This document shows, in pieces, positions 18-4,857 of a DNA stretch of 64,000 bases; the first letter of the stretch is position 1; each line of letters starts with the position of its first letter. The DNA lies in the NCBI GenBank assembly GCA_041651155.1, contig JBAZJU010000004.1, positions 39,427-103,426 of the forward strand. The letters run 5' to 3'. The DNA is from Patescibacteria group bacterium (lineage in GTDB: Bacteria; Patescibacteriota; Patescibacteriia; CAIXNZ01). The notes beneath the pieces are model-generated. The model did no database searches, had not been told where the DNA came from, and worked only from the letters and a program-made list of their open reading frames with translations. A program made the position numbers and the translations under genes.

Positions 18-1685
18 ATGGCTTATTCCTTGCAAGGCTTGAATAATCATGTTGCTTCGGCTGTTTCAGCCCATTATTGGCTGCACAAAGTTTATCCGCA
101 AGAAGTCAGAGACGCACATTCAAATGCGGATATTCATATTCATGATTTGCAGACTCTGGCAGCTTATTGCTGTGGCTGGGATTTGCGTGATTTATTAATG
201 AAAGGCTTTGGCGGGGTAATGGGGAAGGTTTCTTCTAAGCCAGCTAAGCATTTTAGAACAGCTTTGGGCCAGATCGTGAATTTTTTTTATACCTTACAAG
301 GCGAAACAGCAGGCGCTCAGGCTTTTTCCAGCTTTGATACGTATTTAGCGCCTTTTATTGCTTTTGATAATTTAACTTACGGCGAAGTGAAGCAATGCAT
401 ACAGGAATTTTTATTTAATATGAATGTGCCAACACGCGTTGGCTTTCAAACGCCCTTTACCAATATAACGATGGATTTGATTATTCCAGACATGATGAAA
501 GACGAGCCTGTCGTGATTGGCGGTAAATTCCAGGATAAGACTTATAAGGAATTTGCCAAAGAAATGGATATGATTAATATTGCTTTTACGGAAGTTATGA
601 CTGCAGGAGATGCGAGCGGGCGTGTTTTTACTTTTCCAATCCCGACTTATAATATTACCAAGAATTTTAGCTGGGATAATGAAGTAGTTGATAAAATCAT
701 GGAAATGACAGCGAAATATGGCATCCCATATTTTTCCAATTTTATTAATAGCGATATGAAACCAGAAGATGCGCGTTCTATGTGCTGCCGTTTGCGCTTG
801 GATAACAGGGAATTAAGAAAAAGAGGCGGCGGACTTTTTGCGGCTAATCCTTTGACCGGCTCAATTGGCGTAGTGACTATTAATTTGCCGAGATTAGGCT
901 ATACTTCAAAAGATAAAGGTGAATTTATGGAAAAATTAGAGCGGATGATGAATATTGCTAAAACTAGTTTAGATATGAAGCGCAAGGTAGTAGAGAAATT
1001 TACTGACGATGGCCTGTATCCGTATTCCCGTTATTATCTGCAGGATATTAAAAGTAAATTCGGCGAATACTGGAAAAATCATTTTAATACCATTGGCATT
1101 AATGGGATGAATGAAGCGGCTTTAAATTTGCTTGGCAAAGATATTACCACCGAAGAAGGCCATAAGTTTGCAGAAGAAGTTTTGGATTTTATGCGGGAAA
1201 AATTAATGGATTACCAAAATGAAACCAATAGTTTGTATAATTTAGAAGCTACGCCTGGAGAAGGTATCACTTATCGCTTTGCCAAAATTGATAAACAGAA
1301 ATATCCGGATATTATTGCAGCCAATGAAAAATCTTATCGTGAAAGCGGGGCAGATCCTTATTACACTAATTCTTCGCATTTGCCGGTTGATTATACTGAT
1401 GACATTTTTGAAGCGCTTGATTTGCAGGATGGCCTGCAAACGCGCTATACTGGAGGTACAGTGTTACATGGCTTTATTGGCGAGAAATTACCAACCATTG
1501 AAGCAACTAAAAAATTGGTGAAAAAGATTGCAGAAAATTACCATTTGCCGTATTATACAATTACACCTACATTTTCTGTCTGTCCGGTTCATGGTTATAT
1601 TGCAGGTGAGCATTATTTTTGTCCAAAATGCGACGCGGAAATAGGTTATGTGGAAAAAGTTGGCAGTATCCATTCAGCGAGCTAA
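18..1685 (+). CDS. nrdD: Anaerobic (class III) ribonucleoside-triphosphate reductase NrdD; large body with C-terminal zinc ribbon; probably 5'-truncated by the window edge
   Basis: 555-aa ORF with NrdD-like segments (SMCCRLRLD catalytic Cys pair, C-terminal CPVHGY...FCPKC zinc-ribbon). The reading frame stays open back to position 3, so the true start is probably upstream of the window. Confidence 0.85.
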   Translation: MAYSLQGLNNHVASAVSAHYWLHKVYPQEVRDAHSNADIHIHDLQTLAAYCCGWDLRDLLMKGFGGVMGKVSSKPAKHFRTALGQIVNFFYTLQGETAGAQAFSSFDTYLAPFIAFDNLTYGEVKQCIQEFLFNMNVPTRVGFQTPFTNITMDLIIPDMMKDEPVVIGGKFQDKTYKEFAKEMDMINIAFTEVMTAGDASGRVFTFPIPTYNITKNFSWDNEVVDKIMEMTAKYGIPYFSNFINSDMKPEDARSMCCRLRLDNRELRKRGGGLFAANPLTGSIGVVTINLPRLGYTSKDKGEFMEKLERMMNIAKTSLDMKRKVVEKFTDDGLYPYSRYYLQDIKSKFGEYWKNHFNTIGINGMNEAALNLLGKDITTEEGHKFAEEVLDFMREKLMDYQNETNSLYNLEATPGEGITYRFAKIDKQKYPDIIAANEKSYRESGADPYYTNSSHLPVDYTDDIFEALDLQDGLQTRYTGGTVLHGFIGEKLPTIEATKKLVKKIAENYHLPYYTITPTFSVCPVHGYIAGEHYFCPKCDAEIGYVEKVGSIHSAS

Positions 1686-1744
1686 TAAAAATATTTAAAT
1701 AAGTTTGTCTATTTTTAACAAATAGGCAAAACTGGGGAATTATT

Positions 1745-1885
1745 ATGAATACAAAAATGCAACGCACACCCTGTGAGGTGTATTCCCGAGTAGTCGGCTA
1801 TATTCGCCCTGTCAATCAGTGGAACAAGGGGAAAAGAGCAGAATTTGCAGACAGAAAAGAATATAACAAGCAGCTAGCCGGGTAA
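1745..1885 (+). CDS. Small ORF encoding an NrdD-type glycyl-radical C-terminal motif (MNTKMQRTPCEVYSRVVGYIRPVNQWNKGKRAEFADRKEY...)
   Basis: A 46-codon ORF not in the supplied track (below its size cutoff). The RVVGY...NxGK...E motif is the class III RNR glycyl-radical signature. It lies in a different frame from nrdD, 60 nt after the nrdD stop. Confidence 0.45.
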   Translation: MNTKMQRTPCEVYSRVVGYIRPVNQWNKGKRAEFADRKEYNKQLAG

Positions 1886-1923
1886 TGGTTCCTTAAAGGA
1901 GGACAGTCTAGTTCTTTAAAGAT

Positions 1924-2032
1924 AAAAACCAGTCCGCGCAGAAATTTTGGGTACAGTTAACCCATAAAAGCGTCAGATAATTTGGCACTCTTATGAGTTA
2001 ACTGTATTCTCCTTGCAGAGACTGGTTTTTTT
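1924..2032 (+). terminator. Nested long hairpin with 3' T-run in the nrdD-nrdG intergenic region (terminator or structured RNA)
   Basis: Outer stem aaaaaccagtc (1924-1934) pairs with gactggttttt (2020-2030), followed by tt. Inner stem acagttaac (1953-1961) pairs with gttaactgt (1997-2005). Confidence 0.4.
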
Positions 2033-2073
2033 AATTAAAATGAAACTACGAATAAGGATACCCGGCTAATTTA

Positions 2074-2108
2074 CAAACCTTCGTTCCGCATGGCGGGACT
2101 ACGGTTTG
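2074..2108 (-). repeat. REP-like structured palindromic element, instance 1 (caaacc-TTCG-ttccgc-atg-gcggga-CTAC-ggtttg on the plus strand)
   Basis: Same architecture as instances at 9512, 30367, 43321 and 63312, with covarying stems. Confidence 0.5.
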
Positions 2109-2216
2109 CAAAGGCAAATTCAATACAAATATTACAAATTAGTTTTTAGTAGTTTTGTAAATTATAAATTGGACAAATATTAGTATAATTAGTATTAAAT
2201 TAGTAAATTAGTATCT

Positions 2217-2912
2217 ATGTTAAAGATCGGCGGTTTGCAAAAAATAACTTTAATTGATTATCCTGGCCATTTAGCAGCTACGATTTTTTTAGCTGGCTGT
2301 AATTTTCATTGCGGTTTTTGCCATAACCCTGGTTTGGTAGAAATTAAACCCGGCCGAGAGTTTATTTCTGCCCAAGAAATTTTAGATTATTTATGCAAAA
2401 GAAAAGGGATTTTGGAAGCTGTCTGCATTAGTGGCGGTGAACCCTTAATCCAGCCGGATTTAAAGGATTTTTTAGCTCAAATTAAGTCTTTGGGTTATTT
2501 AATTAAACTGGACACCAATGGGTTTAACCCCGCTTTCTTAAAAGAATTACTAGCCCAGAATTTAATAGATTATATTGCCATGGATATTAAAGCTTCGCTT
2601 GCTAAATATGGGGAGATTACAAATGTAAAATCTGATTTTAAAAATATAGAAGAAAGCATCAAGATAATTTTGGCAGGGAACTTGCCATATGAATTTAGAA
2701 CAACTGTTTTGCCAAAATTTCATGACCCAAAGGAGATGGCAAAAATCGGGCAAATGATTACTGGCGCAAAAAATTACTATTTGCAAAATTTTAGAAATTT
2801 TAAAACTCTGGATCCCTCTTTTGCGCAAGAGCAGGCTTTTACCGAGGCTGAATTGCAAAAATTAAGAGAAATAGCCTTAAAATACGTTAAAAATTGTGAA
2901 ATCAGGAATTAG
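2217..2912 (+). CDS. nrdG: Anaerobic ribonucleotide reductase activating protein (radical SAM)
   Basis: CNFHCGFCHN radical-SAM CxxxCxxC motif near the N-terminus; 231 aa; immediately downstream of nrdD. Confidence 0.8.
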   Translation: MLKIGGLQKITLIDYPGHLAATIFLAGCNFHCGFCHNPGLVEIKPGREFISAQEILDYLCKRKGILEAVCISGGEPLIQPDLKDFLAQIKSLGYLIKLDTNGFNPAFLKELLAQNLIDYIAMDIKASLAKYGEITNVKSDFKNIEESIKIILAGNLPYEFRTTVLPKFHDPKEMAKIGQMITGAKNYYLQNFRNFKTLDPSFAQEQAFTEAELQKLREIALKYVKNCEIRN

Positions 2913-2938
2913 ATTTAAGATATTTGAGATGAATTAAA

Positions 2939-3244
2939 ATGACGATTTTAGAAAAAAAGATTTTATCTTTAGTTAACAAAATCCCCAAGGGGAAAGTAAC
3001 AACTTATGGCCTTTTAGCGTTAAAAATAGGTAATAGCCGTTTAGCGCGTGTTGTAGGAAATGCTGTACATAAAAATTTAAATATAATCGTGGTTCCTTGC
3101 CATCGGGTAGTCAAAAGTGATGGCCAGATCGGCAATTATCGCCTGGGTATTGCCAAAAAGACAGAATTGTTGCAAAATGAGGGTATAAAAATAAAGGCAG
3201 GTAAAATTTTAAATTTTACTGATGTCCTTTATAATTTTAATTAA
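2939..3244 (+). CDS. Methylated-DNA-protein-cysteine methyltransferase (MGMT/Ogt) DNA-binding/active-site domain protein
   Basis: VVPCHRVV active-site PCHR motif. The 101-aa size matches standalone MGMT C-terminal domain proteins. Confidence 0.75.
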   Translation: MTILEKKILSLVNKIPKGKVTTYGLLALKIGNSRLARVVGNAVHKNLNIIVVPCHRVVKSDGQIGNYRLGIAKKTELLQNEGIKIKAGKILNFTDVLYNFN

Positions 3245-3296
3245 ATTTAAAGTTTAGTTAAAATCTGTCCAGGTTTTGACTATTAAAAGGAACTAT

Positions 3297-3524
3297 ATGA
3301 AAAAATGTAAAAAATGCGGGGCGCCTTTGGAAGGTTTTCTTTATAATACCATTGGCAAATTAATGGGCATTAAGCCATCTGCTTCAGATCCAGAAACATG
3401 TAATAAATGCGCTGAAGATAAGACTGAAGAAGCGCCAAAGGCAGAAGAAAAAACTCCAGAAGTTGCCACTCCAGCTGAACCAATAGAAACTCAAGCAGAA
3501 GAAAAAGAAGATACTTCACTTTAA
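3297..3524 (+). CDS. Small hypothetical protein with CxxC...CxxC zinc-ribbon-like N-terminus and an acidic Pro/Glu-rich tail
   Basis: MKKCKKCGAP...CNKC. ATG at 3297 with AAAGGA 8 nt upstream; the track ORF begins at an upstream TTG. Confidence 0.4.
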   Translation: MKKCKKCGAPLEGFLYNTIGKLMGIKPSASDPETCNKCAEDKTEEAPKAEEKTPEVATPAEPIETQAEEKEDTSL

Positions 3525-3548
3525 AAATTTTTATTTAAAAAATTAAGG

Positions 3549-3577
3549 GACAGGAAAAATTTATTTTTCCTGTCTTT
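3549..3577 (+). terminator. Intrinsic terminator (perfect 12-bp hairpin gacaggaaaaat/atttttcctgtc plus T-run)
   Basis: Perfect inverted repeat with a 2-nt loop, followed by tttaatt. Confidence 0.6.
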
Positions 3578-3591
3578 AATTGGGTAAAATT

Positions 3592-4857
3592 ATGTTTGCA
3601 CAAAATAATAGTCAGGAGAAAATTTTTTCTAAAAATTTAATAGTTTTGGTTTTGATTTTTAGTTTGATTTTTGGCGGTTTAGCCGGAGCAGGCACAACTT
3701 TTTTAATTTTAAATAATTCAGGCAAGGCGGGTATTTTAAATATTCAATCCCAAGAGCAGAATAATTCTAATTTGACTAATAATGCAGGCACCTCCGGCAT
3801 TGACTTAGAAGCGGCAACTATCAGCGCAGTTAAAAAAACTCAACCTTCAGTTGTCAGTATAATTATTTCCAAAGAAGTCAGCGCTGTGCAGACTCCCAAT
3901 TTTAATGATTTTTTCCAGCTTGGTTTTCCTTTTCAATTTAATTTTGGCGAACCTGCCCAGCCTGCTCCTTCTCAAGATCAAAAGCCGCAAAAGCAGGAGA
4001 TTGGCGGTGGTTCTGGTTTTATTGTTTCCAATGATGGCTTAATCATTACCAACAAACACGTGGTGGCAGATGATGCCGCAAGTTATACTGTTTTAACCAA
4101 TGATGGCAAAAAATATGAGGCTAAAGTTTTAGCCAAAGATCCAACAAATGATTTGGCGGTCATAAAAATAGAGGCCAAAGATTTAACCCCATTAACTTTA
4201 GGCGATTCTGATAATATTGAAGTTGGCCAAACAGTGATTGCGATTGGCAATGCCCTGGGAGAATATAGAAATACTGTTACCAGAGGTGTAATTAGTGGGA
4301 TTAACAGGACAGTCCAGGCTGGCGGCCAGGGATTTACAGAAACTCTGGAAGAAGCGATCCAGACTGATGCAGCTATTAATCCGGGCAATTCAGGCGGTCC
4401 GCTTTTAAATTTAAAAGGCGAGGTCATTGGCATGAATACCGCAATTTCCCAATCAGGCCAATTAGTTGGCTTTGCCATACCGATCAATGAAGCCAAACAA
4501 GACATAGAGAGCGTGCAAAAAACTGGCAAAATTGTCAGGCCATATTTGGGTGTGCGTTATGTTCTTATCAATAAAGAAATTGTTGAGGCTAATAAATTAT
4601 CAGTTGATTATGGCGCTTTAATTTCCCGAGGCCAGACAGCAGATGAACTGGCTGTGGTGCCTGGTTCTCCGGCTGATAAAGCGGGCTTGGTTGAAAATGA
4701 TATTATTTTGGAAATAAATGGCCAGAAAATTGATGAGAGCCATTCATTGGCCAGACTTTTGGCAAAATATGCGCCGGGCGATGAAGTTGAACTTAAGATT
4801 TCACACAAAGGGGAAGAAAAGACTGTTAAGGTTAAATTGGAGGAAAGGAAGGATTGA
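3592..4857 (+). CDS. HtrA/DegP-family serine protease with N-terminal membrane anchor and C-terminal PDZ domain
   Basis: Trypsin-like GNSGGPL motif, HV...D catalytic segments, PDZ-like C-terminus. An alternative TTG start lies at 3580. Confidence 0.85.
   Translation: MFAQNNSQEKIFSKNLIVLVLIFSLIFGGLAGAGTTFLILNNSGKAGILNIQSQEQNNSNLTNNAGTSGIDLEAATISAVKKTQPSVVSIIISKEVSAVQTPNFNDFFQLGFPFQFNFGEPAQPAPSQDQKPQKQEIGGGSGFIVSNDGLIITNKHVVADDAASYTVLTNDGKKYEAKVLAKDPTNDLAVIKIEAKDLTPLTLGDSDNIEVGQTVIAIGNALGEYRNTVTRGVISGINRTVQAGGQGFTETLEEAIQTDAAINPGNSGGPLLNLKGEVIGMNTAISQSGQLVGFAIPINEAKQDIESVQKTGKIVRPYLGVRYVLINKEIVEANKLSVDYGALISRGQTADELAVVPGSPADKAGLVENDIILEINGQKIDESHSLARLLAKYAPGDEVELKISHKGEEKTVKVKLEERKD

Follow-up and report, generated by a model that had tools for sequence, protein, structure and literature searches.

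The window, by which we mean the whole 64,000-nt stretch of Patescibacteria DNA analysed here, carries on its forward strand the large chain of nrdD (ORF1, positions 1–1685), a small ORF for a 46-aa glycyl-radical peptide (ORF2, 1745–1885), and nrdG for a radical-SAM activating enzyme (2217–2912). ORF1 was listed at 18–1685 (555 aa); its frame is already open at the start of the window, and the 5′ end of the gene lies outside. The product, comprising the catalytic barrel and the zinc ribbon, scored 948 bits against NCBIfam NF006126 (cutoff 548) over profile positions 122–656 of 684. Since this match begins at position 122, approximately 121 N-terminal residues, the ATP-cone region, are off the window. 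A score of 544 bits was obtained against TIGR02487 (cutoff 326), and residues 2–541 covered positions 6–532 of the 562 in Pfam NRDD (PF13597, E 3e-186). By profile, above the curated cutoffs, ORF1 is the catalytic subunit of a class III ribonucleotide reductase.

An MCCR motif at 779–790 (forward strand), read from the sequence and matched by motif only, is the apparent counterpart of the thiyl-radical cysteine loop; the finger-loop cysteine motif is SCCR in T. maritima NrdD and MGCR in T4 NrdD (PMC4493059). The zinc-ribbon ligands, read from the sequence as C-P-V-H ... C-P-K-C (1581–1631, forward strand), stay on the large chain, and the ribbon was kept across all relatives as CP.HGY......CP.C. 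The C-terminal end of the chain (1632–1685, forward strand) consists of D-A-E-I-G-Y (1632–1649), an unconstrained tail, and the stop. Its last residues are ...FCPKCDAEIGYVEKVGSIHSAS, followed by TAA (1683–1685), and an earlier note on this DNA was therefore correct in placing the nrdD stop just past the zinc ribbon. CD.E[IM]GY was conserved in approximately 78 loci, and the tail beyond it differed in sequence and length (roughly 3–50 aa). The closest relatives (L172, L173, and L007), in which the tail reads ...GYVERTNQFANKNI before the stop, are separated from the window by a 10-nt indel in this tail. Within the tail region, ...EIGY is conserved, unlike the residues after GYVE. The tail (EIGYVEKVGSIH) was also considered as a degenerate radical motif and rejected, because the residues past GYVE are in a shifted frame when compared with close relatives and differ from one family member to the next; the likeness of its VGSIH to the radical motif, remarked on earlier, is accidental, the tail of the closest relatives differing by the 10-nt indel. 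The glycyl-radical motif RVxGY was absent from ORF1, which stops at 1683, and the large chain of every relative (78 of 78) lacks one as well.

The motif is found instead in ORF2, which has its own ATG, lies at a frame offset of 2 and translates as MNTKMQRTPCEVYSRVVGYIRPVNQWNKGKRAEFADRKEYNKQLAG, with the codon of the radical glycine, Gly18 (GGC), at 1796–1798 on the forward strand. ORF2 residues 8–40 matched Pfam NRDD (PF13597) at profile positions 531–562 (E 7.5e-11, 41.8 bits, cutoff 26.2). Because ORF1 and ORF2 occupy adjoining stretches of PF13597, they are contiguous pieces of one family profile, far beyond chance; NCBIfam likewise puts the two next to each other on the NrdD profile. PF13597 was the sole significant match, and Pfam Gly_radical, the radical domain of pyruvate formate-lyase, gave no match to ORF2 at E up to 1. 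Coordinates and Pfam together thus bear out the placing of the radical motif in a separate small ORF in another frame, across a gap of 59 nt (1686–1744).

Homologues of ORF2 numbered 601, and the best 120 of the 601 were all 42–78 aa long. In a phmmer search of 1.84 billion cluster representatives, 3478 matches were obtained, the best 150 of them 49–110 aa in length; these matches may include fragments from contig edges, and 3478 is not a count of true small genes. Ten residues of the peptide were invariant (n = 10: Y13, S14, R15, G18, P22, N27, G29, K30, E33, and R37). The exact peptide was found in two independent assemblies with identical gene arrangement. The dN/dS of the small ORF was 0.03–0.07 at dS 0.7–1.9, which indicates that the peptide is under strong purifying selection.

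Every informative species-representative genome (78 of 78, GTDB) showed nrdD split in this way, the loci being 68–87% identical across the C-terminal part of the large chain. The earlier note had called for a search of related genomes, and the split is indeed widespread among them. The peptide was 44–66 aa long in the 78 loci and began at its own ATG every time, and 77 of these loci had nrdG downstream of the small ORF, the remaining one running to the contig end. Spacers between the two ORFs ranged from −1 to 411 nt, and frame offsets of 0, 1, and 2 were all seen. Unsplit relatives read ...CPKC-x(3-9)-CEVYSRVVGY, which places the break in the linker that joins the zinc ribbon to the radical loop. 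The approximately 35 residues that had seemed to be extra here are not an insertion: they comprise the variable large-chain tail together with a leader of 6–9 residues at the N-terminus of the peptide. The order nrdD, peptide, nrdG was also found beyond the clade of the window, in WS6 (L085), in L081 (on a 3.7-Mb contig), and in L088 and L089, the last two with nrdR upstream of the three genes. In addition, a protein search with the C-terminus of the L081 large chain brought up a second large-chain lineage, which ends ...CPYDHTxEEL..FGIE, without the Gly motif and at a different break point. Since unsplit intermediates exist as well, the split has at least two origins. Judged by these comparisons, it is genuine and ancient, and it has been conserved under purifying selection.

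These data bear directly on the possibility that the split is only a recent indel that inactivated the gene and left a pseudogene, or else a fault of assembly or sequencing in the contig. A stop ahead of an essential motif is a typical product of such events, and the tail of ORF1 in the window does show the 10-nt indel relative to close relatives; but this indel lies downstream of the break, where the tail is under no constraint. Furthermore, the frame of ORF1 closes at 1683 and that of ORF2 opens only past the TAA at 1700–1702, so the open stretches of the two frames do not overlap and no single indel can fuse them into one ORF. With the split in 78 of 78 genomes and in independent assemblies, and with the small ORF under purifying selection, we consider such an origin extremely unlikely. 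The earlier note had offered three readings without choosing one. The two-piece NrdD among them is now strongly supported; the recent frameshift or indel pseudogene and the assembly error are refuted by the 78 split genomes, the identical peptide in two independent assemblies, and the dN/dS of the small ORF.

The spacer contains an intercistronic hairpin (1702–1733, forward strand), located directly 5′ of a Shine-Dalgarno-like run, GGGGA (1734–1738, forward strand), which lies between the hairpin and ORF2. A spacer hairpin of 9–13 bp occupied this position in L001–L012 as well as in the window, with differing stem sequences, and stability z-scores were −2 to −4.5 in 11 of these 13. The hairpin is judged by per-sequence stability, the MAFFT alignment being too poor for RNAalifold covariation. 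In many relatives no clear Shine-Dalgarno sequence precedes the peptide ATG, and nrdG of the window has no clear one either. A hairpin inside the gap between two ORFs that are near each other on one strand, with a 12-nt near-repeat (AAAATGCGACGC / AAAATGCAACGC) on both sides of the gap, could be taken as a sign of programmed recoding of the T4 gene 60 kind, whether by frameshift, hop, or readthrough, that would fuse both ORFs into one polypeptide. Several observations make this very improbable. The gaps of the relatives (−1 to 411 nt, in every frame offset) show no fixed length; a single shift would be insufficient with one frame shut at 1683 and the other open only after 1702; landing at the second repeat copy would not give the reading frame of the motif; the closest relatives do not keep the repeat; the peptide has its own ATG in every case; and some copies of the peptide are wholly unlinked from nrdD. 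We also considered whether the repeat could be a target-site duplication or mark sites of take-off and landing, but a 129-nt deletion leaves the frame unrestored and the repeat was treated as chance.

An intervening element that is removed later, either a small intron or a split intein ligating both chains, would also account for the two ORFs. T4 nrdD carries a group I intron (PMC2988022), and the L089 nrdD bears a LAGLIDADG intein elsewhere in the gene. Against an intron, the extra segment here is approximately 125 nt, and typical group I and group II introns are far longer. Rfam searches of 1400–2400 at E up to 10 and of the whole window at gathering thresholds returned only spurious miRNA-like hairpins and three tRNAs, with no intron and no riboswitch; the search of 1400–2400 gave no real family. 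Nor is the spacer sequence conserved across the family, the 59-nt spacer being conserved only within the closest clade. For an intein, the leader of just 6–9 residues and the variable tail of the large chain leave no room for the two halves, and Pfam gave no Hint or intein match. Removal of an intervening element is thus hardly to be credited, being about as improbable as the indel or error and slightly more so than recoding.

Downstream of ORF2, the interval before nrdG contains a long terminator-like hairpin (1915–2039, forward strand; inverted repeats I1 and I2), with an outer stem AACCAGTC/GACTGG, a palindrome nested inside, and a T-run after it. It is preceded by two GTTC[CT]TTAAAG boxes at approximately 1888–1899 and 1910–1921, and the same hairpin architecture was present in the closest relatives. 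The nrdG product matched TIGR02495 (NrdG2) with 215 bits (cutoff 131), as well as Pfam Radical_SAM and Fer4_12. By profile, NrdG and the rest of ORF1 are intact, and MCCR is kept.

Taken together, the sequence comparisons point to a locus that very probably encodes a naturally split, obligate two-subunit class III reductase, with the radical loop on a separately translated peptide. As the large chain has no Gly motif, the peptide is the sole radical site available. We infer translation of the peptide and assembly of the complex from conservation alone. The radical loop and the C-terminal segment that normally follow the zinc ribbon would be made as a 46-residue peptide from its own start, and NrdG would abstract hydrogen from Gly18 while the peptide is free or only loosely bound. 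Docking would be in trans, the loop of the peptide entering the barrel of the large chain so that the radical could reach the loop cysteine, as it does in single-chain enzymes. The radical Gly of T. maritima NrdD is described as "completely buried" and as having to move for activation (PMC4493059). A loop that can detach may ease activation, given that single-chain NrdD keeps its glycine buried. Moreover, after O2 cleavage at the radical glycine, the cell could swap a 5-kDa peptide rather than the whole enzyme.

Alternatively, the peptide might be merely accessory, a spare part resembling GrcA or a regulator, with the large chain inactive or obtaining its radical otherwise. GrcA/YfiD provides a precedent for pyruvate formate-lyase, and the lone peptide copies in Spirochaetota and phages, described below, resemble accessory genes. 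We consider this improbable, if less so than recoding: the large chain lacks the Gly motif in the window and in all 78 relatives, leaving the peptide as the only radical site; the large chain, peptide, and NrdG are all conserved together; and an inactive reductase would not stay intact at 948 bits against NF006126.

The proposed two-subunit reductase can be compared with several known systems. It shares the family profile with the single-chain NrdD and NrdG of phage T4, E. coli, and T. maritima (NF006126 / PRK08270 type), along with the MCCR cysteine loop, the zinc ribbon, the RVVGY motif, and an adjacent radical-SAM activase. It differs in that the radical motif and all that follows are on a separately initiated 46-aa polypeptide. 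GrcA/YfiD and T4 Y06I, the "spare part" of pyruvate formate-lyase, are likewise small stand-alone glycyl-radical domains; GrcA needs the activase of the parent enzyme and works in trans with a large chain that lacks a functional radical domain, as the ORF2 peptide would. However, GrcA is homologous to the pyruvate formate-lyase radical domain, whereas ORF2 matches PF13597 only, and GrcA (approximately 127 aa) is a repair part for a full-length parent that is present alongside it. At this locus the adjacent parent has no radical domain, which would make the peptide obligate, unlike GrcA. To our knowledge, the radical glycine is on the barrel chain in all characterised glycyl-radical enzymes, with GrcA the sole known exception. 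A June 2026 review describes spare-part radical proteins as known for formate lyases only (PMC13450708), and no description of a split NrdD was found in the searchable literature. Catalytic subunits made of two reassembling polypeptides are known for class II NrdJa/NrdJb of Pseudomonas aeruginosa (PMC9669993) and for the genes-in-pieces class Ia NrdA of Aeromonas phage Aeh1 (PMC2988022); these belong to other reductase classes and are split at other positions, and the radical-bearing element is not separated. In addition, Aeh1 nrdA was split by insertion of a homing-endonuclease gene, whereas no endonuclease gene lies between the halves here: no ORF fits the 59-nt gap, and the longest gap among relatives is 411 nt.

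A naturally and obligately two-piece reductase would offer a minimal native substrate for NrdG, bearing on how the buried glycine is reached, and would permit a direct test of how the radical domain docks into the barrel. It would also suggest a cheap repair after oxygen damage where genomes are tiny, provided that the organism has no other source of deoxynucleotides.

Copies of the peptide were also found away from nrdD. An orphan peptide was present in three Spirochaetota clusters with the conserved synteny leuS, peptide, thiD; GCA_964484915.1 is one of the Spirochaetota genomes that carry the orphan gene. Among viral small-frame loci, drawn from the 80 best viral-contig matches, 70 of 73 were without nrdD or nrdG within up to 10 kb on either side, so that approximately 70 represent the peptide alone. 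The occurrence of the peptide unlinked from nrdD fits a module working in trans. It is possible, in our estimate just short of evenly balanced for the proposal as a whole, that NrdD-type glycyl-radical peptides form a general, exchangeable "radical cartridge" that is indispensable to at least two NrdD lineages split independently of each other and whose lone copies, in many phages and in Spirochaetota, load or reload the class III reductase of the host. If so, the cartridge would give ribonucleotide reductases their first spare-part or auxiliary radical system, and viruses a new type of auxiliary gene. The orphan copies in phages suggest that viruses may manipulate the anaerobic dNTP supply of the host using a gene of approximately 150 nt.

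Both parts of such a reductase are at risk in annotation. The large chains resemble truncated pseudogenes, and peptides of 40–60 residues are easily overlooked or called fragments. The tryptic peptides expected from ORF2 are TPCEVYSR, VVGYIRPVNQWNK, and AEFADR.

[quoted passage not shown] A small ORF of 46 codons (ORF2), in a frame different from that of ORF1, was located at 1745-1885 and reads MNTKMQRTPCEVYSRVVGYIRPVNQWNKGKRAEFADRKEYNKQLAG. With the Pfam NRDD model (562 positions), residues 2-541 of ORF1 matched positions 6-532 and residues 8-40 of ORF2 matched positions 531-562; with NCBIfam NF006126 (684 positions), ORF1 fell on 122-656 (948 bits) and ORF2 on 649-683. The adjoining ranges in both profiles indicate that ORF1 and ORF2 are consecutive pieces of one enzyme. 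The large chain kept the zinc ribbon and the MCCR loop of the NrdD family (779-790), the counterparts of which are SCCR (T. maritima) and MGCR (T4), according to PMC4493059. The radical motif was absent from this chain and present on the peptide, which is conserved together with the activase NrdG; nrdG was found at 2217-2912 (TIGR02495, 215 bits versus a cutoff of 131). These coordinates and profile matches confirm the observation in the earlier note that NrdD is split, with the radical motif in a separate small ORF of another frame.

Three readings had been offered for this arrangement: a two-piece NrdD, a recent frameshift or indel pseudogene, and an assembly error. The related genomes, in which a search for the same split had been proposed, were scanned in GTDB (one genome per species) with the last 221 residues of ORF1, yielding 80 loci with 68-87% identity, all Patescibacteria-type. 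By script, the radical motif was detected downstream in a separate frame in 77 of them; a 78th (L071) had the small ORF with its motif hidden by Ns, and the other two, both stopping at contig edges, were uninformative. In the 78 split loci, the distance from the ORF1 stop to the ATG of the small ORF ranged from -1 to 411 nt, and frame offsets of 0, 1, and 2 were about equally common. The small ORF was 44-66 aa long, always had its own ATG 7-17 codons ahead of the motif, and was followed by nrdG in 77 loci, the 78th running into its contig end. Ten residues were invariant across the peptide family, Y-S-R-x-x-G among them. The dN/dS of the small ORF was 0.03-0.07 (dS 0.7-1.9) in comparisons with six relatives that have 46-aa peptides alignable in register and unsaturated synonymous sites.

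A recent pseudogene is refuted by the recurrence of the split across relatives, by the low dN/dS, and by the closed frames; ORF1 ends at 1683 and the frame of ORF2 is blocked by a TAA at 1700-1702, so that fusion by one indel is impossible. Assembly error does not hold either, since species-level relatives share the arrangement and two independent assemblies (ENA and JGI) carry the same 46-aa peptide with no differences, there too separated from a preceding stop codon by a short spacer. On sequence grounds, a two-piece class III reductase with a separate radical peptide is strongly supported by the split in the 78 informative loci, the peptide's own ATG, and its dN/dS.

When the end of ORF1 was fused to ORF2 and the chimera used as a query, unsplit relatives were recovered in Planctomycetes, Moranbacteria, Nealsonbacteria, Spirochaetes, Bathyarchaeota, Omnitrophica, and others; they read ...FCPKC-x(3-9)-[QK]PCEVYSRVVGY.... 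The break therefore falls in the short linker that runs from the last cysteine of the zinc ribbon to the radical glycine, leaving the zinc ribbon on the large chain and placing the radical loop and a conserved WN.GK..E..DR segment on the peptide. Past ...CD.E[IM]GY, the tail of the large chain was variable in length and composition among relatives. At 1650-1685, a 10-nt indel relative to three close relatives (L172, L173, and L007) altered the last 11-12 residues and shifted the stop by 15 nt, without effect on the downstream gene. Such a change of frame and stop indicates that the tail is unconstrained and its likeness to the radical motif accidental; ...EIGY near the end of the chain is conserved, unlike the tail that follows it.

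Recoding that joins ORF1 and ORF2 was excluded: gaps and frames are variable, the open frames do not overlap, the peptide has a start codon of its own, and unlinked copies of it exist elsewhere. A 12-nt repeat flanking the gap, considered as a recoding site, was not conserved, and its use gives the wrong frame. An intron or split intein was excluded as well, the extra sequence being only about 125 nt. Against an intron, an Rfam scan of the region found nothing and spacer conservation was confined to the closest clade; no intein-like sequence was found in the ORFs with Pfam.

The nrdD-peptide spacer contained a predicted hairpin (1702-1733) directly ahead of a Shine-Dalgarno-like GGGGA run and the ATG. 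It occupied the same position in the twelve closest relatives, with stems still paired and sequence different, and in 11 of the 13 (window plus relatives) its stability exceeded that of shuffled sequence; it may govern how much of each chain is made relative to the other. The peptide-nrdG spacer (1886-2216) had two GTTC[CT]TTAAAG boxes and, after them, a long hairpin resembling a terminator (AACCAGTC...GACTGG with a T-run), in which a palindrome is nested: in the window this is TACAGTTAAC...GTTAACTGTA, and in relatives TATAGTTAAC...GTTAACTATA. This architecture was common to close relatives, some with a simple terminator alone, and its elements had no Rfam match. This layout suggests that transcription of nrdG is separate from that of nrdD and the peptide gene.

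The order nrdD - peptide - nrdG was also found in WS6 (L085, gap of 5 nt) and in L088 and L089, long contigs with nrdR upstream. The genes of L088 abut; in L089 (1553-4996), a large chain of 1147 aa with a LAGLIDADG-type intein stops ahead of the radical motif, and a 54-aa peptide gene lies 4 nt further on. The same order occurred on the 3.7-Mb contig L081, where the large chain (1873-4171) has a different end, ...FCPYDHTPEELRKFGIEADTE. In a search with this chain, the radical motif was missing in 84 of the 120 best matches (P0385-P0504), and most motif-less chains finished with a conserved ...CP[YH][DE]H[TS].EEL..[FY]G[IV]E. By NCBI names, members of this lineage included Hydrothermota, Caldimicrobium, Thermodesulfobacterium, Chloroflexi, and others. 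In a few unsplit proteins (P0428, P0455, P0456, and P0460), the motif comes after the segment with which these motif-less chains end, indicating that the split arose at least twice, independently, and at a different point.

Neither NCBIfam nor PHROGs held a model for the peptide. In open-access papers and bioRxiv full text, neither a split NrdD nor an autonomous radical peptide of the NrdD type was found to be described, an earlier description elsewhere being possible, and the passages checked of papers on reductase evolution mention neither. The known split reductases, class II NrdJa/NrdJb (PMC9669993) and class Ia NrdA of phage Aeh1 (PMC2988022), differ from the NrdD of the window in class and in cut position. 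Split NrdD is widespread and, so far as the literature search reached, undescribed; its biochemistry is directly testable. NrdG would create the radical at the peptide's Gly18, and the peptide would enter the barrel of the large chain and hand the radical to the loop cysteine, as happens in single-chain NrdD. Activation of the single-chain enzyme requires the radical glycine, which is 'completely buried', to swing out (PMC4493059). A detachable loop would lift this obstacle. In glycyl-radical enzymes, oxygen cuts the chain at the radical glycine; in the two-piece enzyme, this would cost only a 5-kDa peptide.

Peptide genes unlinked from nrdD, which a trans-acting peptide would lead us to expect, were also found. 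In three Spirochaetota clusters (L083/L084, L086, and L087; 4001-4177 or 5001-5174), an orphan peptide of 54-58 aa, reading ...PTE[IV]YSRVVGYYRPVNQWNKGK... and ending in A[IL]AV, was encoded between leuS and the thiamine operon in the conserved synteny leuS - peptide - thiD, and neither nrdD nor nrdG was nearby. Relatives of the peptide are encoded by 413 stretches in IMG/VR; in 73 of the best 80, a small reading frame carried the motif, and nrdD-like and nrdG-like sequences were absent at 70 of these 73 loci, which extended up to 10 kb to either side (median locus length 14.4 kb). The viral stand-alone peptides (L090-L169 and L174-L251) were 39-140 aa long and neighboured by phage genes (head-tail connector, transglycosylase, M23 peptidase, exonuclease, and HNH endonuclease). 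Some had their own CxxC...CxxC zinc ribbon (L154, L155, L156, L161, L166, and L151), and one group had a conserved N-terminal extension, NGDL.LDNG..IPA. A deposited example of such a viral orphan radical-domain protein is the 144-aa stand-alone CDS AJP62049.1 of archaeal virus ANMV-1 (GenBank KP703175.1; L170, 2680-3114), annotated 'anaerobic ribonucleoside triphosphate reductase' among hypothetical genes. The unlinked copies may act as spare parts or may supply split host enzymes.

Many peptides carried short cysteine-rich tails (CDTCGE, GCGC, DSCC, CEEC, and NCGC), including those of L017, L022, L023, L025, L034, L052, L065, L080, L088, and others. These tails are reminiscent of the C-terminal cysteine pairs with a redox role in class I and class II reductases.
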